Below are positions 33,215 to 41,716 of a stretch of 64,000 nt of DNA, in pieces. The stretch comes from Alphaproteobacteria bacterium (GTDB lineage: Bacteria > Pseudomonadota > Alphaproteobacteria > RF32 > CAG-239), in the NCBI GenBank assembly GCA_020025875.1, contig JAHHRI010000004.1:125-64124 (forward strand), written 5' to 3'. Both the position numbers and the translations under genes were made by a program. The notes beneath the pieces were generated by a model. The model had not been told where the DNA came from and made no database searches. It saw nothing but the letters and a program-made list of their open reading frames with translations. Within the stretch, counting starts at the first letter, position 1. The number at the start of each line of letters is the position of its first letter.

Positions 33215-34225
33215 GTGATTCAAAAGAATTGGCAAGAACTTATTAAACCGACTAATCTTGAAATTGTTCCCAGCGATGGCGGCAACAAGGCTAAGATTGT
33301 GGTTGAACCTTTGGAGAGAGGATTTGGTCTTACTCTCGGCAACGCGTTAAGACGCATTTTACTCTCTTCTTTGCAGGGTGGCGCCGTAACGGCAATTAAA
33401 ATCGACGGTGTCTTACATGAATTTTCGGTTATCCCCGGTGTAAGAGAAGATGTTACGGATATTGTCTTAAACATCAAAGGGTTGGCCGTTGCCGTTCACA
33501 ACGAGGGTATGAAAACCATGTATCTGAAGGCCGAAGGGCCGTGCGAAGTGACGGCAGCAATGATTGAGACAGGACATGACGTTGAAATCAAAAATCCTGA
33601 TCTTTTTATTTGCACGCTTGATGCCGGCGCCAAACTCAACATGGAACTGACTGTCAATACAGGCAAAGGCTATGTTCCGGCAAGCCAAAACAAGCCGGTG
33701 GATGCACCGATCGGGTTGATTGCCGTTGATGCTATCTATTCGCCGGTTAAGCGCGTTTCGTACCGTGTTGATCGTACTCGTGTCGGTCAAGTTACCGATT
33801 ATGATAAATTGACATTGGTGGTTGAAACAAACGGCGTTGTTACACCGGAAGATGCGGTTGCTTTCTCGGCTCGCATTCTGCAAGATCAGTTGAAACCGTT
33901 TATTAATTTCGATGAACCGGAAAATGAAGCAGAAGTTGAAAAAGAAGAACTGCCGTTTAACAAGAATTTGTTGAAAAAGGTTGAAGAACTTGAACTTTCC
34001 GTTCGCTCCGCCAACTGCTTGAAGAACGATAACATCGTTTATATCGGTGATTTGGTGCAGAAGACAGAAGCTGAAATGCTGAGAACGCCGAACTTCGGGC
34101 GCAAGTCTTTGAACGAGATCAAAGAAGTTTTAGCCAAAATGGGTATTCATCTGGGTATGGAAACTCCAGGATGGCCGCCGGAAAATATTGAAGAATTGAT
34201 CAAACGGGTTGATGATCACTTTTAA
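33215..34225 (+). CDS. rpoA: DNA-directed RNA polymerase subunit alpha
   Basis: 336 aa with GTG start, beginning [12 protein letters not shown]... Contains ..[11 protein letters not shown].. and the C-terminal domain ..[19 protein letters not shown]... Confidence 0.96.
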
Positions 34226-34243
34226 TCTTGGATATGATTAAGC

Positions 34244-34279
34244 AAAAAACTCTCCTACCACGGTAGGGGAGTTTTTTTG
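34244..34279 (+). terminator. intrinsic terminator directly after rpoA
   Basis: A6-CTCTCCTACC-acg-GTAGGGGAG-T7, starting 19 nt after the rpoA stop. Confidence 0.8.
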
Positions 34280-34438
34280 TAACCGAAGAGGAATGCAAAA
34301 ACATTTGCAAAGAATGGACGGAAGCCGCCGAGGTTAGATGATAACGGGGCGTGGCGTCAGATGTATGATGATTAATTGAGGCTAAAAAAAGAATCGGCGA
34401 GCGTGATTTAAGGGGTAGGAAATAAAGGGATATTAAAT

Positions 34439-34776
34439 GCTTGCTGTGGAGGTGGTGCGGCAGGCGGTTGTGGTGCTTGTTGTCGGTAGGTGGTGCGTTA
34501 GGCGGTAGGGCGCTTGCTGTCGGTAGGTGGTGAGTTAGGCGGAAGGGCGGTTGCTGTCGGTAAGTGATGGGGCAGGCGGTAGGGTGCTTGCTGTCAGAGG
34601 TGGTGCGGCAGGCGGAAGGGCGGTTGTTGTCGGTAGGTGATGCGCTAGGCGGAAGGGCGGTTGTTGTCGGTAGGTGGTGCGCTAGGCGGAAGGGCGGTTG
34701 CTGTCGGTAAGTGATGGGGCAGGCGGAAGGGTGCTTGTTGTCGGTAGGTGGTGCGTTAGGCGGTAGGACGGTTGCT
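34439..34776. repeat. tandem array of 9 copies of a degenerate 36-37-bp unit (plus a partial unit)
   Basis: Unit is roughly GTCGGTAGGTGGTGCGYTAGGCGGWAGGGCGGTTGYT. Unit boundaries fall at 34446, 34482, 34519, 34556, 34593, 34629, 34666, 34703 and 34740. Each unit holds two copies of a 9-mer core GKCGGWAGG. The plus strand is strongly G-rich and C-poor. Confidence 0.9.
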
Positions 34777-35416
34777 TGAAACAAACAGATAAAGTTGCGA
34801 TGAGGCGTTGGGCGAATCGAGCTTGCTTGATTGCGTATCCTGCTTTTGGTATCTCCCGATGATGCTTGTCGGTGGCGAAAACGGGCGTTTCCCAACACAT
34901 CAAGTAAGTATCTTTTTGGCGGCGGTATCGGAGCGTGTCTTTTTCGAGATGGCGGTCATATCGAAAGGTTTTGGATATTGTTCGTCATGCTTCAAAGAGG
35001 CCGTCAAAATCTAATAAATTGTTTTTTGATTTAAAAATTCTCTTTTGACGAATTTTTGTATTAATTATGTGTCAGTACGGCGGCAATCATGGCATTTATC
35101 CTTGTTTTTTAGCAGAAATGTAGTAGATTGTAAAAAAGTCCGATCACAAACTTTGTGTCATTTTTCGGCAAAATGCGAAAAAGCGGTTTGGCGGTGAGTT
35201 GAAAACAGTATGTGTTTCGGAAAAGCTGATAAAACAAGGCTGGATTTTGATAATCTTTTCTATAAAACGCGCCAAGACGATATGGCTTTTTTGTATTCTT
35301 ATATCGTTGAAAAAGCGTGTTTTTGGCACTGCGCGGATGGTGATGTCAGTGGGGTGGCAAATGTTATGTGAACTGATTTTTTTACAGCCGCAACGAAAGA
35401 AAGGAAAAGGGTGTCA

Positions 35417-36454
35417 ATGGTTGAAGATTGGCAAAAACTGAATGCTTGCCGCTTGGGCTTGGTGTCTTCTTTTTTGTGGCACTACAAAGCTGTCGGCTAT
35501 CATGAAGCCCCACCGTTGCCGGTTACTTCCAAACAAGACGAAAGCGTGATTTTTGTCGGTGCGGCGATTTCGGCATTAAAAAAGGATTACATTTATCCGC
35601 AGGCCATTCCGAGCGGCGGGTTGGTCATAGCTCAGGACGCCATCCGCACGCGTAACATCAAAAATATGCTTGCCGATGACTTTCAGCCCAAATGGGGATC
35701 CTATTTTACCAATATCGACACGGTGTTTCCCTACGAACACAAGAACGAAGCCTTTGCTCAGGCCTTAGCTTTTTTTACGGACAAAGTAAAACTCGCGCCT
35801 GAGGATTTGTTGTTGCGTGTTCGTTCAAAAGACGAAGAATTGTATCAATTAGTGCAAGCAAGCCGTTGGCCGACGGTGGAGGTTGATGCTCATCCGGAAA
35901 AATACTACCGTCATACGGTTGGTATTGACGATGTTTACGGAGAAAATTTTAATTTTGCCGTGCGCCATAAACACACCGGCGAATATTGCGATGTCGGCAA
36001 CTTTATCGTGTTCCGCGATTGCGGAAGCCGACAGCCGCTGTTTATGGAAGTCGGTTTCGGAGATACGGTGATTATGCAGGCCAAATATGGGTTGCCTCAT
36101 GTTACGGATTGTTATCCGTTTCCCAAACATCCGGCGCTGGATCAAAACCATAAGTTCAAAGACTGCATTATAACCTCGCAAGCGATGATGCGCGAGGGGC
36201 TTATGCCGTCCAGCCGCGATGAACAGTGTAAAATTCTTTACAAATATCTACGCAGTATTTATTATTTTGCAGATCAGGCAAGATTGAAGCCGCAGGAGCT
36301 TTCAAAACTGTTGCATCATTCCGAGGCGATGATTTTCGGCAATGTGCGGGCAGCACCGGTCATGACGGAGCTGTTTGCCGCAAAAAGCGGGAGAATGGAA
36401 GAACTGAACAGGGTAACTTTATGGAAATTACAACAACAAAGAGAGGGAAGATGA
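35417..36454 (+). CDS. stand-alone paralog of the class II alanyl-tRNA synthetase catalytic core (no tRNA-binding, editing or C-Ala domains)
   Basis: 345 aa (GTG 35411 also possible). The by-eye alignment to the AlaRS N-terminal domain is collinear throughout. FLWHYKAVGYHEAPPLPVTSKQDESVIFVGAAISALKK matches FLDFFHSKGH..V.SSSLVP.NDPTLLFTNAGMNQFK. IAQDAIRT matches SQRCVRA. WGSYFTNIDTVFPYEHKNEAFAQALAFFTDKVKLAPEDLLLRV matches HHTFFEMLGNFSFGDYFK.DAI.FAWELLT....LPKERLWVTV. VGNFIVF matches IWNIVFMQ. FMEVGFGDTVIMQAKYGLPHVTDCYPF matches SVDTGMGLERIAAVLQ.V.SNYDIDLF. CIITSQAMMREGLMPSSRDEQCKILYKYLRSI matches IADHIR...FLI.DGV.PSNE.RGYVLRRIIRRA. Confidence 0.7.
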   Translation: MVEDWQKLNACRLGLVSSFLWHYKAVGYHEAPPLPVTSKQDESVIFVGAAISALKKDYIYPQAIPSGGLVIAQDAIRTRNIKNMLADDFQPKWGSYFTNIDTVFPYEHKNEAFAQALAFFTDKVKLAPEDLLLRVRSKDEELYQLVQASRWPTVEVDAHPEKYYRHTVGIDDVYGENFNFAVRHKHTGEYCDVGNFIVFRDCGSRQPLFMEVGFGDTVIMQAKYGLPHVTDCYPFPKHPALDQNHKFKDCIITSQAMMREGLMPSSRDEQCKILYKYLRSIYYFADQARLKPQELSKLLHHSEAMIFGNVRAAPVMTELFAAKSGRMEELNRVTLWKLQQQREGR

Positions 36455-37416
36455 TAGCAAAAAAATTAAAGAAAGGCTCGCATGTGCGAGTTATTGCACC
36501 TGCACGCAGCTTGGGGATTGTGAGTGAAAATTGTCGGAAAATTGCCGATAAGCGGCTTGCAGAGATGGGCTTGCGGGTTTCGTTCGGGCGGCATGCGGAA
36601 GAAATGGACGGGGTTGCTTCTTCTTCCGTTGCGTCCCGATTGGAAGATTTGCATGAAGCTTTTGCCGATAAAACGGTTGACGGCATTCTGACGGTTATCG
36701 GCGGGTTTAATTCGATTGAACTTCTTTCCGGAATAGATTATCGGTTGATCGCCGATAACCCAAAGATTTTGTGCGGCTTTTCCGATATTACCGGACTGGC
36801 CAACGCCATTTATGCCAAAACGGGGTTGGTGACTTATTCGGGGCCGCATTACTCTACTTTCGGTATGCTGAAAGGAAACGAATATACGCTTGAATATTTT
36901 AAAAAATGCCTGTTTCAGAGCGAGTCCTTTGAGTTGCATCCGGCAGCCGAGTGGTCGGATGATCCATGGTATCTGGATCAGGAAAACCGCAAATTTATAA
37001 AAAATGACGGCTACTGGGAAATAGCTTCCGGTGCCGCGGAAGGTCGGTTGGTCGGCGGCAATTTGGGGCTTTTGGACGAGTTGAAAGGAACGCCTTATTT
37101 TCCGGACATCAAAGACAGTATTTTGTTTTTGGAACATTGTGCGGAAAATGAAGTTTGGACTTTTAACCGCAATCTGCAGGCACTCTGCCTGCATCCGGAT
37201 TTTGCTTCGGTTAGGGCGATTGTGTTCGGACGTTTTGAGCCGGAAAACCAAATTGATCGGTCGAAGTTGGAGCAGATATTGAGCACAAAGAAAGAATTGG
37301 TCGGAAAACCGATTATTGCCAATGTCGATTTTGGGCATACAACACCGATCATTACCTTTCCTATCGGCGGCAGCTGCCGAATCGATAACGGGCGGATTGA
37401 ACTGACGGCATTTTAG
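36451..37416 (+). CDS. peptidase S66 family serine hydrolase (LD-carboxypeptidase LdcA / microcin C7 immunity MccF-like)
   Basis: 321 aa. Its ATG overlaps the upstream stop as ATGA. Nucleophile elbow ..ILCGFSDITGL.., acidic ..ILFLEHC.., and His in ..NVDFGHTTP.. occur in the Ser-Glu-His order of S66 enzymes. N-terminal ..VRVIAPA... Confidence 0.8.
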   Translation: MIAKKLKKGSHVRVIAPARSLGIVSENCRKIADKRLAEMGLRVSFGRHAEEMDGVASSSVASRLEDLHEAFADKTVDGILTVIGGFNSIELLSGIDYRLIADNPKILCGFSDITGLANAIYAKTGLVTYSGPHYSTFGMLKGNEYTLEYFKKCLFQSESFELHPAAEWSDDPWYLDQENRKFIKNDGYWEIASGAAEGRLVGGNLGLLDELKGTPYFPDIKDSILFLEHCAENEVWTFNRNLQALCLHPDFASVRAIVFGRFEPENQIDRSKLEQILSTKKELVGKPIIANVDFGHTTPIITFPIGGSCRIDNGRIELTAF

Positions 37417-37423
37417 GGCGCAA

Positions 37424-37933
37424 ATGATTCTGACTGGTTCGGAAATTAAGAAATATGTTCTTAACGGCGATATCGTTATTGAGCCGTTTTGCGAAGATCA
37501 GCTCAATCCCAACAGCTACAACTATCGGTTGGGAAAAACCCTGACGTTTAAGGAAGATGACGGAAAGTACCACACGCTTAAAATTCCCGATGAAGGCTTG
37601 ATTCTTTATCCTAATCGGGTGTATTTGGGACATACGTTTGAAACGTTGGGCAGCAGCAAATGTGCCATGTCGCTGATTGGGCGCAGTTCGACCGGACGGC
37701 TGGGGCTGTTTTTGCAGGTTTCCGCCGATCTCGGTCATACCGGTTCCGTTCATAAATGGACTCTGGAACTGGTCACGGCTAAGCCTTTTCGGGTTTATCC
37801 GGAGATGATTATCGGGCAGATTTCATTCTGGCTCAATGATGGTGATGCCTCTTTGTACAAGGGAGGATACTCGGCCTATTCCTGCCCGCAAATATCGAAA
37901 ATGGAGAAAGAAATTGATACTGACGGGAAATAA
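37424..37933 (+). CDS. dCTP deaminase-fold protein, paralog 1 (catalytic Glu retained)
   Basis: 169 aa. Starts MILTGSEIKKYV..G.IVIEPF....LNPNSY..RLG, with GRSSTGRLGLF (compare Dcd GRSSLARLGL) and WTLELV, where Glu aligns with the Dcd catalytic Glu of ..IVLEF... The C-terminal tail diverges from Dcd. Confidence 0.8.
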   Translation: MILTGSEIKKYVLNGDIVIEPFCEDQLNPNSYNYRLGKTLTFKEDDGKYHTLKIPDEGLILYPNRVYLGHTFETLGSSKCAMSLIGRSSTGRLGLFLQVSADLGHTGSVHKWTLELVTAKPFRVYPEMIIGQISFWLNDGDASLYKGGYSAYSCPQISKMEKEIDTDGK

Positions 37934-38432
37934 AATTGCCGAAGAAGTTTTGAACGGAAAAATTGTGATTGAGCCGTTTGAGCTTTCCGGCATAACGACA
38001 AATTCTTATGATCTGACCTTGGGCAACAAGCTGTTGATGTATAATGACGAGGTGCTGGATCCTAAAAAAGAGCCGCAAACAACCATGTTTGAAATTCCCG
38101 ACTCCGGATATGAAATGAAACGCGGAGAATTTTTGCTCGGGTGCAGCAATGAATTTGTCGGCAGCGACTTTTATGTGCCGATTGTTCATGCCAAATCAAG
38201 CATTGCCAGACTGGGGCTGTTTATTCACATTACCTCCGGCTTGTTTGACATCGGTTGCAAATGCAATGTCACTTTTCATCTGTATGCAACAATGCCGATC
38301 AGGTTATACAAAAATATGCCGATTGCGCAAATAACATTTTGGAAAACCACGGGCGAAATAAAACACTACCACGGCAAATATCAGAATGATACAGGTCCCG
38401 TGGCTTCGCGCATTTGCAAAGATTTCAAATAA
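37914..38432 (+). CDS. dCTP deaminase-fold protein, paralog 2 (His replaces the catalytic Glu)
   Basis: 172 aa from in-frame TTG 37914, preceded by GGAGAAAG. This gives (M)ILTGNKIAEEVLNGKIVIEPF, parallel to paralog 1, and overlaps paralog 1 by 20 nt. It has AKSSIARLGLF and VTFHLY at the ..LE.. position, and a Dcd-like C-terminus KYQNDTGPVASRICKD. The track's start at 37836 adds an implausible extension. Confidence 0.72.
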   Translation: MILTGNKIAEEVLNGKIVIEPFELSGITTNSYDLTLGNKLLMYNDEVLDPKKEPQTTMFEIPDSGYEMKRGEFLLGCSNEFVGSDFYVPIVHAKSSIARLGLFIHITSGLFDIGCKCNVTFHLYATMPIRLYKNMPIAQITFWKTTGEIKHYHGKYQNDTGPVASRICKDFK

Positions 38433-38435
38433 AGA

Positions 38436-38873
38436 TTATTTTTCCAGTACGAAAGTGACCGGTCCGTCGTTGATCAGTTCCACCGCCATGTCGGCTTGAA
38501 AAATACCGTTTTCCACATTAAGCCCTTCGGCTTGCAGACATTCGGAAAAATATTCGTAGAGCGGTTTTGCCGTTTCCGGTCCGGCGGCATGGTCAAAACC
38601 GGGGCGGTTGCCGCGAGATGTGTCGCCTGCCAGCGTAAATTGGGAAACAACCAGCGCGCTGCCGCCCACATCTTTGAGCGAAAGATTCATTTTGCCGTTC
38701 CCGTCTTCAAAGATGCGCAATGCCGCCGTCTTTTTTGCAAGAGCCGCCGCTTGTTCTTTGCCGTCATTTTTGAAAACACCGATAAAGATGAGTAAACCGA
38801 CGCCGATTGCCGATACACTCCGATCGTTAACCGAAACCGAAGCTCTTTTGACACGCTGAATAAGAAGCTTCAT
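38436..38873 (-). CDS. dtd: D-aminoacyl-tRNA deacylase
   Basis: 145 aa from ATG 38873 (GGAGG RBS). Starts MKLLIQRV..A.V.V, with ..VSQFTL.. and ..NDGPVTF... Its stop lies only 3 nt from the stop of Dcd-like paralog 2 (convergent). Confidence 0.92.
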   Translation of the reverse strand: MKLLIQRVKRASVSVNDRSVSAIGVGLLIFIGVFKNDGKEQAAALAKKTAALRIFEDGNGKMNLSLKDVGGSALVVSQFTLAGDTSRGNRPGFDHAAGPETAKPLYEYFSECLQAEGLNVENGIFQADMAVELINDGPVTFVLEK

Positions 38874-38977
38874 TTTTATCCTCCAAAGTTTTTTTATGAT
38901 AAAGGGTAGCGTTGAGAAAGCCGGAATGCAAGCTTTATTTTGTGGTTTTTGGTGTTCAATATGCAAATAAAAAAGGC

Positions 38978-39006
38978 TTGCCAAAAAGAAAAATCTTCTG
39001 TATATT
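38978..39006 (+). promoter_or_regulatory. near-consensus sigma70 promoter dedicated to rplQ
   Basis: TTGCCA (38978-38983), 17-nt spacer, TATATT (39001-39006). Lies about 120 nt upstream of the rplQ ATG. Confidence 0.55.
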
Positions 39007-39126
39007 GCGCCTGAAATCGTGAGTTTGAAATTCGCGGAATGCCGGCATTTATGAAGGTAGTGACGGCTTTTTATGTTTTATCCGCTTTGCCTGTCAAAGC
39101 ATTTAGAGAAAAGAAAGGAAACAGCC

Positions 39127-39633
39127 ATGAGACATGGTGATAAACACAGAAAATTTAACATGCCGAGAAGCCAGAGAAGAGCTTTGTTCTCAAACCTGAC
39201 CAACGCGTTGTTGACGCATGAGCAGATCACAATCACTTTGCCGCGCGCCAAAGAACTGAGAACTTTTGCCGACAGCATGATCACGTTTGCCAAAAAAGGC
39301 GATCTGAACAGTCGTCGTATGGCGTTGGCCTTTTTGCGTGACAACGAAGTTGTTGCCAAATTGTTCTCTACTTTAGCCGAACGTTATAAAGAACGTAACG
39401 GTGGTTATACGCGTGTTCTTAAAGCCGGCATTCGCTATGGCGATGCTGCTCCGATGGCGATTATCGAACTGGTTGACCGTGATGTTAATGCCAAAGGTGC
39501 CAAAGATTTGGCACGAGTAGCCGCCGAGAAGGCCGCTGCCGAAGCTGCTGAAAAAGCGGTTGAGGAAGAAGCTAAAAAAGAAGAAGCCAAAGTAGAAAAA
39601 AAGGCTGAAAAAAAATCGAAAAAAGCCGAATAA
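39127..39633 (+). CDS. rplQ: 50S ribosomal protein L17 with Ala/Glu/Lys-rich C-terminal tail
   Basis: Starts [23 protein letters not shown]...L..HE.I.T at ATG 39127 (AAGGAA RBS). The tail is ..[37 protein letters not shown]. Confidence 0.95.
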
Positions 39634-39895: not shown

Positions 39896-41716
39896 TTATC
39901 CTTTTGCTAAATTTTCCGCCAGTTCCAAGAGTTCCAGCCATTGATTTTCGTCGGCTTCCTTTTTTTGTTCCAGCTCTTCCAGTTGGTCGGTGAGGGTCAG
40001 AAAACGGCTTGGGGAATTTTGGTAAAGTGCCGTATCGTTCAATGCGGTGCGGATGAGGGCAATTTGCTTTTCGCTTTCCTCAATTTGTTTGGGGAGTACG
40101 GAAAGTAAACGCTGCTGGTTGTAGCTGAGCTTGCCGCGGGCGTTCTCCTGACGTTGGCTGCCGGTGTTTTTGGCGGCATTTGTTTTGCTTTTGTTGGGGG
40201 CAGGCAACGGCTCTCTTTGATTGAGGTTTGCAAGCATATCGCTGTAACTGCCGACATATTCTTCAATTTTTCCGTTTCCGTTCATATAGATAATGGAGGT
40301 GACGATTTTATCCAAAAAATCTCGGTCATGGCTGACGATCATAATGGTTCCGTCATAGTCGCCGAGAGTTTCCTGCAAAAGGTCCAAAGTGTCCATATCC
40401 AGATCGTTGGTCGGTTCGTCTAACAGCAAAAAGTTTGACGGCAGCGCCAGTACCTTGGCAAGCATCAACCGATTTTTTTCGCCGCCCGACAGAGCGGCTA
40501 CCGGAGATTTGGCTTGTTCCGGCGTAAACAGAAAGTCTTTCAGGTATGCCACCACATGCCGCCAACTGCCGCGAACCCAAATATGATCTCCTTGGTCGCA
40601 AAGCGTTTGCCACAGAGTTTTGTTTGGATCCAAGGTGAAGCGGTTTTGGTCAAAATAGGCTTCTTCCATGTTTTTGCCAATTCTGACAAAGCCGGAATCC
40701 GGTGTTAATTTTTTGGTCAACAGTTTAATGAGAGTGGTTTTGCCGGCGCCGTTGGGGCCGACGATGCCAATTCTGTTGCCGCGGATGATTTTTGTTGAAA
40801 AATCGTTGACGATTGTTCTGTCGGCAAAGGATTTGCACAGATGTTTGGCCTCAATCACCAGCTTGGAGCGCCACGGCGTGTTTTCTATATCCATGTTGAC
40901 TGAGCCGATTTGCCTGATTTGTTCCTTGCGCTCTTGCCTCAGTTGTATCAGCCGCCGCAGGCGTCCCATGTTGCGTTTGCGGCGAGCCGTCACACCTTTG
41001 TGTAACCATTCCGTTTCTTCGGCAATTTTTTTATTGAGGTATTTTTGAGCAATGATTTCTTGTTCGATGACTTGGTCCTGCCATTCTTCAAAACTGCCGA
41101 AGCCTTTGTTGTTGCGGCGCAAAGTTCCTCGGTCGAGCCAGAAAGTGGTGCGCGAAATGTTGGTCAGAAAACGTCTGTCGTGGCTGATAACGACAACGGC
41201 GCCACCGTAGTTGCCGATGATTTTTTCCAGAGTTTCGATGGTTGGCATATCGAGATGGTTCGTCGGCTCGTCTAAGAGCAGAATGTCCGGTTCTTCAATG
41301 AGGGCTCTGGCAAGCGTCGCTTTGCGTTTTTCTCCGCCGGAGGCGGTGGCGGGATCTGCGTCGGCAGCGATATCCAGCTGTTTGATCCATATGTCTGTTT
41401 TGTAGTCTTCGCTGCCGTCGTGACGGTTAAGTCCGTCGGCAACGGCTTCGCGCAGGGTTTTGAATTTGCTTAAGTCGGCATCTTGGGGCATATAGCCGAT
41501 TTTGATATTGGGCTGGATGAAAATTTCTCCGTCGTCGGGTTCAATCAAGCCGGCGATTATTTTCAGCAATGTCGATTTACCGGAGCCGTTGCGTCCGACC
41601 AGTGAAATTTTATCACCGCGGTTGATGTATAGTTCGACATCTTCAAACAGCTGTTTGCTGCCGAAACGGATTTTGATACCTTTCAAAGTGTAAATGGGCG
41701 CTTCAAATGCCGGCAT
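39896..41716 (-). CDS. uup: ABC-F family ATPase, Uup-like
   Basis: 606 aa with two ABC cassettes (GRNGSGKST, GPNGAGKTT, two LSGGE signatures), an inter-domain linker, and a C-terminal coiled coil ..KLSYNQQRLL..LP..IE..E..I.., as in Uup. Confidence 0.85.
   Translation of the reverse strand: MPAFEAPIYTLKGIKIRFGSKQLFEDVELYINRGDKISLVGRNGSGKSTLLKIIAGLIEPDDGEIFIQPNIKIGYMPQDADLSKFKTLREAVADGLNRHDGSEDYKTDIWIKQLDIAADADPATASGGEKRKATLARALIEEPDILLLDEPTNHLDMPTIETLEKIIGNYGGAVVVISHDRRFLTNISRTTFWLDRGTLRRNNKGFGSFEEWQDQVIEQEIIAQKYLNKKIAEETEWLHKGVTARRKRNMGRLRRLIQLRQERKEQIRQIGSVNMDIENTPWRSKLVIEAKHLCKSFADRTIVNDFSTKIIRGNRIGIVGPNGAGKTTLIKLLTKKLTPDSGFVRIGKNMEEAYFDQNRFTLDPNKTLWQTLCDQGDHIWVRGSWRHVVAYLKDFLFTPEQAKSPVAALSGGEKNRLMLAKVLALPSNFLLLDEPTNDLDMDTLDLLQETLGDYDGTIMIVSHDRDFLDKIVTSIIYMNGNGKIEEYVGSYSDMLANLNQREPLPAPNKSKTNAAKNTGSQRQENARGKLSYNQQRLLSVLPKQIEESEKQIALIRTALNDTALYQNSPSRFLTLTDQLEELEQKKEADENQWLELLELAENLAKG

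Follow-up and report, generated by a model that had tools for sequence, protein, structure and literature searches.

What is a truncated gene related to alanyl-tRNA synthetase (AlaRS) doing beside an S66 hydrolase gene and two genes of the dCTP deaminase fold, at a site between rpoA and rplQ? The question is raised by four co-directional genes on the forward strand of a 64,000-nucleotide stretch of an alphaproteobacterial genome (contig JAHHRI010000004.1, hereafter the window). They encode a stand-alone AlaRS-like protein (ORF1, here named AlaL; 35411-36454), a cytoplasmic S66 serine hydrolase (ORF2; 36451-37416), and two dCTP deaminase-fold paralogs (ORF3 or DCDa, 37424-37933; ORF4 or DCDb, 37914-38432). 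A preliminary description of this DNA had proposed that they form an undescribed cassette, with synthesis plus self-protection, anti-phage defence, or detoxification and salvage as possible roles. Judged from comparative data, the cassette is a functional, vertically inherited, and reduced member of a wider cluster family. The core of this family is, by its recurrent neighbourhoods, AlaL, usually with an S-adenosylmethionine (SAM)-dependent methyltransferase, joined by either the DCDa/DCDb pair or an AsnA-like core. We slightly favor the view that the family is a widespread one of specialised metabolism, with enzymes to make, and in this cassette also to cleave, an amino-acid-linked pyrimidine nucleotide compound.

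The AlaL family looked tiny in word-index protein searches, which retrieved only 21 relatives with ORF1 and 26 with a broad alignment, all without names. An exhaustive profile search identified 579 representatives at 50% clustering, 209 of them with E <= 1e-30. Nearly all are 320 to 400 amino acids (aa) long, and the family is rare and patchy across phyla. Every sampled member is labelled 'hypothetical', and sampled cluster proteins are either 'hypothetical' or mislabelled 'dCTP deaminase'. Using an alignment of 14 AlaL sequences for the metagenome scan, we annotated 113 AlaL-bearing loci by seed-based phmmer and unbiased neighbor clustering; these represent 58 non-redundant AlaL groups, 34 of which have at least 2.5 kb on both sides. 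Among these 34 well-flanked groups, an S66 gene is present in 28 and a methyltransferase gene in 27, plus one methyltransferase in a fusion protein. An AsnA-like class II core is found in 18/34, the DCD pair in 13/34 (an inflated frequency, see below), and HD, radical SAM, and HIT proteins in 9/34, 6/34, and 4/34, respectively. The DCD pair and the AsnA-like gene never occur together (0/34), which separates an architecture A (methyltransferase, AlaL, and the DCDa/DCDb pair, with or without S66) from an architecture B (HD-methyltransferase-AlaL-S66-AsnA-like, sometimes with a ThrRS paralog). The preliminary description had suggested looking for ORF1 homologs next to S66 and paired Dcd-like genes in unrelated taxa, and such neighborhoods do exist.

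AlaL is also found fused to a SAM methyltransferase, a GNAT domain, an HD phosphohydrolase, or a response-regulator receiver domain. Family members P0047, P0076, and P0124 are receiver-domain, GNAT, and HD fusions, and the receiver fusion hints at regulation of AlaL by phosphorylation. One microbial-mat contig (L027:2070-8507; also L028 and L070) has a six-gene operon for a 184-aa protein, a ThrRS paralog, an AsnA-like core, AlaL, a methyltransferase, and S66; three consecutive genes of this operon derive from class II synthetases. A Pseudonocardiaceae metagenome-assembled genome (MAG) has an identical set of genes.

An orthologous DCDa/DCDb pair lies beside AlaL in nine separate lineages: gut Alphaproteobacteria, two unassigned environmental metagenome contigs, Serratia, Pseudomonas viridiflava, Burkholderia lata, Bdellovibrionales, Actinoallomurus, and a DPANN archaeon. 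The signatures of both paralogs are kept in loci whose AlaL is merely 24-31% identical to ORF1. Two distant loci (AlaL 30-31% identical to ORF1) consist of AlaL-DCDa-DCDb without S66, and have the split signatures and Gln at position 138. A search with DCDa found proteins of about 60% identity in cultured bacteria, and AlaL adjoins the DCDa homolog in 5/5 contexts examined. In Serratia marcescens and P. viridiflava, the order is methyltransferase-DCDb-DCDa-AlaL-metallophosphoesterase, followed by two ATP-grasp ligases and an MFS transporter; the P. viridiflava copy is on an integrase/IS66-flanked island, and the Serratia cluster was not found in E. coli genomes. Burkholderia lata has DCD-DCD-AlaL-pyridoxal phosphate-dependent decarboxylase-methyltransferase-ATP-grasp-MFS, and in Actinoallomurus a nonribosomal peptide synthetase (NRPS) gene is followed by DCD-DCD-AlaL-sulfotransferase-MATE-peptidase-GNAT and a polyketide synthase (PKS) gene. 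The Bdellovibrionales order is radical SAM-DCD-AlaL-DCD-hydrolase-NUDIX, and that of the Nanobdellota archaeon is AlaL-S66-methyltransferase-DCD-DCD-GNAT. The cassette looks biosynthetic because the triad of cultured hosts sits among ATP-grasp ligases, NRPS/PKS genes, and MFS/MATE exporters. All related alphaproteobacterial loci share one gene order, which other phyla have in rearranged form, and the arrangement is not due to chance. Recurrence of the linkage across bacterial phyla and in one archaeon supports the proposal that the four genes are a functional unit, and on these comparative grounds they form a selected and conserved one.

One distant locus with this triad, L104, has an AlaL-DCDa-DCDb-GNAT-amidohydrolase operon closed by a 644-aa fusion of a MoaA-like radical SAM domain, a nucleoside-diphosphate kinase, and an HD domain (L104:11474-13408). 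A holin and an M15 endolysin are encoded upstream, and the locus may be a prophage.

The matches in genome collections are MAGs from the guts of humans, mice, and ruminants, with labels of uncultured gut 'Azospirillum' or Alphaproteobacteria. The order methyltransferase-AlaL-S66-DCDa-DCDb is present in 12/12 alphaproteobacterial genome loci, usually followed by dtd on the opposite strand. It also holds in gut metagenome loci with enough flank and at sites other than rpoA-rplQ. Among the gut alphaproteobacterial loci, only the group of the window lacks this methyltransferase. In its place is a non-coding spacer (34281-35410), in which a 62-nt segment (35094-35155) is all that matches the DNA immediately preceding the methyltransferase gene in L011/L012. 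A tblastn search across the whole window found no remnant of the methyltransferase gene, which is, by comparison with these relatives, deleted here. The four genes had been taken for the whole cassette, and this needs amending, as a methyltransferase near-universal beside ORF1 homologs (and once fused to one) is missing. All four remaining genes have dN/dS values of 0.04-0.07 (0.07 for ORF1 and 0.065 for ORF2), with no sign of faster evolution of ORF1 or ORF2 in the window lineage; by these estimates, all four are under strong purifying selection.

The spacer also contains a G-rich tandem repeat (34439-34776; identified with TRF) with a 37-nt unit, 9.2 copies, 82% matches, and a higher-order period of 147 nt, which was not found in the related loci compared (L001-L025). 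The repeat sits in the gap left by the deleted methyltransferase and gives rise to a spurious minus-strand ORF of 232 aa. Among close relatives, the distance from rpoA to the cassette is about 120 nt in L005/L016 and 2.4-3.5 kb in L011/L012 (L011:6737-9200 and L012:5669-9179, including a 230-aa ORF without a Pfam match), and the window has 1.1 kb without the methyltransferase. Because spacer length differs so widely among close relatives, the comparison points to a local rearrangement hotspot.

The fold assignments of the preliminary description (an AlaRS core, an S66 hydrolase, and two dCTP deaminase-fold paralogs) agree with Pfam and NCBIfam searches and, for ORF1, also with AlphaFold2 (AF2) and Foldseek. 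ORF1 (347 aa) scores 28.5 bits against PF01411 (cut-off 30.3), covering only the first ~135 model residues, and 26.3 bits against TIGR00344 (cut-off 457). Its AF2 model has a pLDDT of 91, and the top 19 PDB matches in Foldseek are all AlaRS catalytic fragments or full-length AlaRS (TMq 0.66-0.73), the best being the catalytic fragments 3hxu and 1riq (TMq 0.70-0.73). The predicted structure thus has the fold of the AlaRS catalytic domain, consisting of an aminoacylation domain and a helical C-terminal part. The tRNA-recognition, editing, and C-Ala domains of the full-length AlaRS architecture are absent.

Residues of ORF1 were mapped onto E. coli AlaS manually, guided by the secondary structure of the model; profile-profile and global hhalign comparisons of the family with E. 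coli AlaRS reach the N-terminal ~135 residues at most, so that the C-terminal motifs were placed by hand from motif and secondary-structure matches. In this mapping, the motif-2 Arg (Arg69 in E. coli) corresponds to R79 (kept in 134/141 family members) and Asn212 to N197 (133/141). The amino-group-binding Asp235 is replaced by E213 (Glu in 133/141), and Gly237 corresponds to G215 (Ala or Gly family-wide). The motif-3 Arg is lost, with V220 at its position and Thr or Val throughout the family. A stacking Phe (F99) and a metal-site acid (D194) are conserved across the AlaL family. The preliminary description had placed ORF1 with class II cores that form aminoacyl-adenylates, and this is put in doubt by the mapping. 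Because the motif-3 Arg is absent and Glu replaces the amino-group-binding Asp, ORF1 may instead be an aminoacyl-tRNA-dependent transferase like AcmF. That it is a decayed alaS fragment was also considered, and rejected given its dN/dS of 0.07, its intact signature residues, and its membership of a family of 579 representatives of the same length.

ORF2 contains both S66 domains (PF02016, 107 bits, E 1e-31; PF17676, 99.8 bits, E 2e-28). Its strongest PDB matches (4e5s/5usd/4h1h, E 1e-106 to 1e-103) are the solved Bacillus anthracis BA_5613 and Listeria Lmo1638 proteins, to which it is 55-60% identical over the full length. The match to MccF (3tyx and 3gjz; E ~1e-39, 7e-39) is one stretch over residues 3-312, with WSD aligned and spanning the inter-domain loop with a conserved Trp, whereas that to LdcA (5z01; E 1e-22) is broken into two stretches. 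Motifs for the catalytic triad are present (Ser in GFSDIT, Glu in LFLEH, His in FGHTTP) and line up with those of the solved homologs; in 4inj, the second of the two Lmo1638 entries, Ala occupies the Ser position. The LdcA equivalog model NF008424 gives 122.2 bits (cut-off 378). By these matches ORF2 is closer to MccF than to LdcA, and a plain LdcA, the candidate tried for this gene, was rejected on the low NF008424 score and the far stronger matches to MccF-type structures. BA_5613 (entries 4e5s/5fd8/5usd) and Lmo1638 (4h1h/4inj) are Firmicute proteins whose source genomes are not known to contain AlaL, and they may be orphan enzymes that confer resistance to what the AlaL clusters make. We found no functional study of either protein in the literature, and the PDB table gives generic molecule names.

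Both Dcd-like proteins match PF22769 (ORF3, 101 bits, E 8e-29; ORF4, 108 bits, E 4e-31). With TIGR02274 (cut-off 92.8), ORF4 is above the threshold at 108.5 bits and ORF3 below it at 63.5. The paralogs are 34% identical, and compared with E. coli Dcd their defects complement each other. DCDa retains the catalytic Glu138 and GRSS..R, but LGHTGS replaces IDPGW, with His in place of Asp128. DCDb retains the motif-III-like Asp128 and the lid residues at its C-terminus, but positions 138 and 110 are His and Lys, respectively; TFHL or TFQL replaces VLEF, with Gln at 138 in L102, L104, and the Serratia and Pseudomonas orthologs. The Ser-Ser-x-x-Arg motif is conserved in both, and the complete Dcd active site (Ser111, Arg115, Asp128, and Glu138 in E. 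coli numbering) is present in neither. The expectation that these proteins are plain Dcd enzymes converting dCTP or dUTP was therefore not borne out, since neither is canonical. An ordinary dcd was likewise rejected as an identity for ORF4, in which His or Gln occupies the position of the catalytic Glu and which belongs to a pair linked to AlaL. Identity to the Serratia and P. viridiflava orthologs is 62% for DCDa and 53-55% for DCDb; AlaL of the window is 24-28% identical to that of the same gammaproteobacterial clusters. Because the DCD proteins are so much better conserved than AlaL, one reading is that a common nucleotide-processing step is paired with a diversifying aminoacylation step.

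The closest precedent for AlaL is the acm system of Streptomyces sp. JCM9888 / 80H647 (AcmF, AcmD, and AcmE). In ascamycin biosynthesis, AcmF, a truncated AlaRS-like enzyme of 370 aa, uses Ala-tRNA to alanylate a sulfamoyl nucleoside, and the hydrolase AcmE takes the alanyl group off again (PMC12945691, PMC4257720). By published description, AcmF resembles ORF1 in being stand-alone, in its length, and in having Glu for the amino-group-binding Asp (PMC4257720, PMC12945691). The acm cluster table contains no Dcd-fold pair, S66, or AsnA-like gene, and its other genes build 5'-O-sulfamoyl adenosine (PMC4257720). AlaX deacylases, considered as cluster markers (PMC13149037), are a different protein family from AlaL. 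A full-length synthetase gene lies beside AcmF, as ThrRS or GlyRS genes lie beside AlaL in several distant loci. However, AcmF has Gln in place of the Asn and has lost most ATP-binding residues, whereas AlaL keeps the Asn (133/141) and most residues of the ATP site. No named AcmF is among the 20 AlaL representatives that were looked up.

Immunity enzymes against aminoacyl-nucleotides include MccF (S66), MccE (GNAT), and MccH (HIT). The microcin C system combines synthesis of a non-hydrolysable aminoacyl-nucleotide with such a set (MccF, the C-terminal GNAT domain of MccE, and MccH) and with SAM-using tailoring by MccD, and genes for S66, GNAT, HIT, and methyltransferase proteins are likewise recurrent neighbors of AlaL. 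ORF2 can be aligned along its whole length with B. anthracis MccF (E 7e-39), but belongs to the BA_5613/Lmo1638 subfamily and not to MccF proper. The AlaL clusters also differ in using Dcd-fold, HD, or HIT nucleotide handlers and a synthetase-like ligase; no ThiF-like MccB is found among the four ORFs or the recurrent neighbor families. No MccA-type precursor gene was seen in the cassette, where short peptide genes were not searched for systematically. DCDa and DCDb share the fold, length, and Ser-Ser-x-x-Arg motif of Dcd and of the bifunctional dCTP deaminase-dUTPase, but are always paired, have split signatures, and are linked to AlaL rather than to nucleotide-metabolism genes. Recruitment of a synthetase core without the full tRNA-handling apparatus is shared with AsnA, GluQRS/YadB, EpmA/PoxA, HisZ, and the amino acid:carrier-protein ligases, and AlaL often has an AsnA-like class II core as a neighbor. 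To our knowledge, none of AsnA, GluQRS, EpmA, HisZ, and the carrier-protein ligases is AlaRS-derived or linked to S66 or Dcd-fold pairs. The finding is best classed with the synthetase-paralog-based aminoacyl-nucleoside pathways. That the combination of genes is not a described one agrees with our searches: no literature on the cluster was found (subscription journals were partly covered), and PADLOC gave no match.

Among the three proposed roles, synthesis with self-protection fits best, given the DCD-DCD-AlaL triad in clusters with ligases, NRPS/PKS genes, and exporters. In the pathway that we slightly favor, DCDa and DCDb, probably as a hetero-oligomer with complementary active-site residues, would convert a cytosine (deoxy)nucleoside triphosphate to a uracil-type nucleotide or monophosphate precursor. 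AlaL would then join an amino acid to the nucleotide-derived acceptor, either from aminoacyl-tRNA, as AcmF does, or via an aminoacyl-adenylate. In relatives, the methyltransferase would decorate the product, lineage-specific genes (ATP-grasp ligases, NRPS/PKS, decarboxylase, sulfotransferase) would extend it, and MFS/MATE pumps would export it. The MccF-like S66 enzyme would cleave the aminoacyl-nucleotide bond in the cytoplasm, for self-protection or turnover. Because the methyltransferase has been lost in the window, this strain would make an unmethylated product or carry a partial pathway.

Several points weigh against this pathway. Every chemical step in it is deduced from folds and neighbors. 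Exporters and ligases are missing from the versions in gut Alphaproteobacteria and candidate phyla, and a site beside ribosomal genes is unusual for an antibiotic cluster. As the window copy is without the near-universal methyltransferase, the normal product of the family is perhaps not made. DCDb scores above the NCBI dCTP deaminase cut-off and, judged from the 64-kb window, may provide a housekeeping supply of dUMP. With the motif-3 Arg absent, the mapping does not tell an ATP-dependent AlaL from a tRNA-dependent one, and AcmF is set beside the family by description and not by sequence. Neighbors in metagenomes were called with home-made phmmer seeds and most of the distant loci are metagenomic, and five of the DCD-bearing loci came from DCDa searches, so that the 13/34 frequency of the pair is inflated.

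Alternatively, the exporter-less clusters with S66 (in gut Alphaproteobacteria, the DPANN archaeon, and candidate-phyla bacteria) could be resistance or salvage islands, which dismantle an aminoacyl- or peptidyl-nucleotide imported from other microbes. In such an island, S66 would cut the aminoacyl bond, the DCD pair would act on the pyrimidine nucleotide that is set free, and the aminoacyl part would be bound or re-routed by AlaL. The distribution of genes is consistent with this, as S66 clusters are without ATP-grasp ligases and exporters and the clusters with ligases and exporters are without S66. The S66 subfamily also stands alone in B. anthracis and Listeria, like orphan MccF homologs; HIT and GNAT genes, which encode known aminoacyl-nucleotide detoxifiers, often adjoin AlaL; and the methyltransferase was lost without relaxed selection on the remaining genes. 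However, AlaL has a synthetase/transferase fold with conserved catalytic residues and not that of a hydrolase, the same AlaL/DCD triad is found inside obvious biosynthetic clusters, and no importer is linked, which leaves dismantling on the unlikely side. It is quite improbable that AlaL aminoacylates a tRNA base or a protein, with the methyltransferase completing the modification, as a translation-related housekeeping function in this clade. The truncated synthetase paralogs GluQRS and EpmA, which modify tRNA or EF-P, are precedents for such a role, and it would suit both the position between rpoA and rplQ beside dtd in several gut lineages and the ThrRS or GlyRS genes that adjoin distant AlaL genes. 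However, no tRNA gene is consistently linked to the AlaL loci, the family is rare and patchy rather than lineage-wide, and the Dcd-fold pair, S66, NRPS/PKS, ATP-grasp ligases, and exporters fit poorly.

Defence systems based on dCTP deaminases exist, and the DCD pair could deplete dCTP upon phage infection, with AlaL and S66 making or controlling a toxic or signalling aminoacyl-nucleotide. The mobile island of P. viridiflava fits this idea, as does the L104 operon with its radical-SAM/kinase/HD fusion beside holin and endolysin genes. However, none of the four ORFs matches a PADLOC-DB 2.0 family at E <= 0.1, and searches of IMG/VR viral contigs, GenBank phages, and PLSDB plasmids found no AlaL. 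In the gut lineages, the cassette is stably inherited and occupies a core-genome site rather than defence islands, and neither DCD paralog has a complete canonical deaminase site, so that a defence function has a slightly smaller chance still than modification of a macromolecule. The four genes could finally be coincidental neighbors, comprising a housekeeping dcd (ORF4), a murein LD-carboxypeptidase (ORF2), and a decaying alaS fragment (ORF1). The TIGR02274 score of ORF4 and the placement among housekeeping genes would agree with this, but it is hardly credible and already contradicted by the comparative data: the linkage of AlaL with S66 and DCDa/DCDb recurs across bacterial phyla and in an archaeon, the catalytic Glu of ORF4 is replaced, ORF2 fails the LdcA model (122 vs 378 bits), and ORF1 has an omega of 0.07 and belongs to a large family of constant length.

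The DCDa/DCDb-AlaL triad, usually with a methyltransferase, might be the signature of an undescribed product class, which we suggest only tentatively and with somewhat more doubt than belief. The class would comprise pyrimidine (deoxy)nucleotide-amino acid conjugates made by a hetero-oligomeric, sub-functionalised Dcd-fold enzyme and a truncated AlaRS-like aminoacyl transferase. Its producers would include human-gut Alphaproteobacteria, DPANN archaea, Serratia, Pseudomonas, Burkholderia, and actinomycetes, and the BA_5613/Lmo1638 subfamily of S66 would be its dedicated hydrolase and resistance enzyme. The gene cluster family is conserved across domains and carries no annotation, and its core enzymes are unusual, namely a stand-alone paralog of the AlaRS catalytic fragment and an obligate dCTP deaminase-fold pair that divides the active-site residues. 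If an aminoacyl-pyrimidine nucleotide is indeed the product, such a pathway would add a new chemotype, and a route that is neither ThiF- nor NRPS-based, to the translation-targeting aminoacyl-nucleotide antimetabolites (microcin C, ascamycin, agrocin 84, albomycin). It would also suggest a function for the solved proteins BA_5613 and Lmo1638, and an unrecognised metabolite of a common uncultured lineage of the human gut. The presence of the cluster in cultured and tractable Serratia marcescens, Pseudomonas viridiflava, Burkholderia lata, and Actinoallomurus makes the question directly testable.

At the locus itself, rpoA (33215-34225) is followed by a gap of ~1.2 kb, the four co-directional genes, a convergent dtd, and rplQ. 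A base-by-base reading agrees with the operon-type junctions reported before. The ORF1 stop and ORF2 start share ATGA (36451-36454), directly preceded by GAGAGGGAAG. The ORF2 stop TAG (37414-37416) is separated by the 7-nt gap GGCGCAA from the ORF3 ATG at 37424. ORF3 (stop at 37931-37933) and ORF4 overlap by 20 nt, and GGAGAAAG (37903-37910) and the three nucleotides AAA precede the TTG start of ORF4 at 37914; its stop is at 38430-38432. The short start choices are correct, as ORF2 aligns with solved S66 structures from residue 1 onward, and an MILTG N-terminus and the TTG start of ORF4 are both kept in relatives. The cassette had been described as inserted into a ribosomal operon. Its position between rpoA and rplQ stands, but rpoA is followed by a strong intrinsic terminator on the forward strand (34242-34280; a 17-bp hairpin and U-run, -21.3 kcal/mol, z = -6.0, with 0/200 shuffles folding equally well). 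Because of this terminator and the ~1.1 kb of non-coding DNA before ORF1, the cassette is probably its own transcription unit and probably not co-transcribed with the rpoA-rplQ stretch. An Rfam scan of 34200-39200 found no family (riboswitch or T-box), and promoter and terminator consensus scans gave background level only.

The dtd gene, encoding D-aminoacyl-tRNA deacylase (38436-38876, reverse strand; PF02580 at 185 bits, TIGR00256 at 177 bits), ends 3 nt from the ORF4 stop. It follows DCDb in most gut alphaproteobacterial loci and is a conserved neighbor in the gut clade only, being absent beside distant AlaL-family members; it is probably not part of the cassette system. The rplQ gene (39073-39633) encodes a Lys/Ala/Glu-rich C-terminal extension of about 40 aa, and related loci of several lineages match its first ~130 residues only, indicating that the tail varies. 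The gene just downstream, on the reverse strand (39896-41716), encodes a protein of 606 aa that has two ABC ATPase cassettes and ends in a coiled coil; by eye, it is of the ABC-F type.

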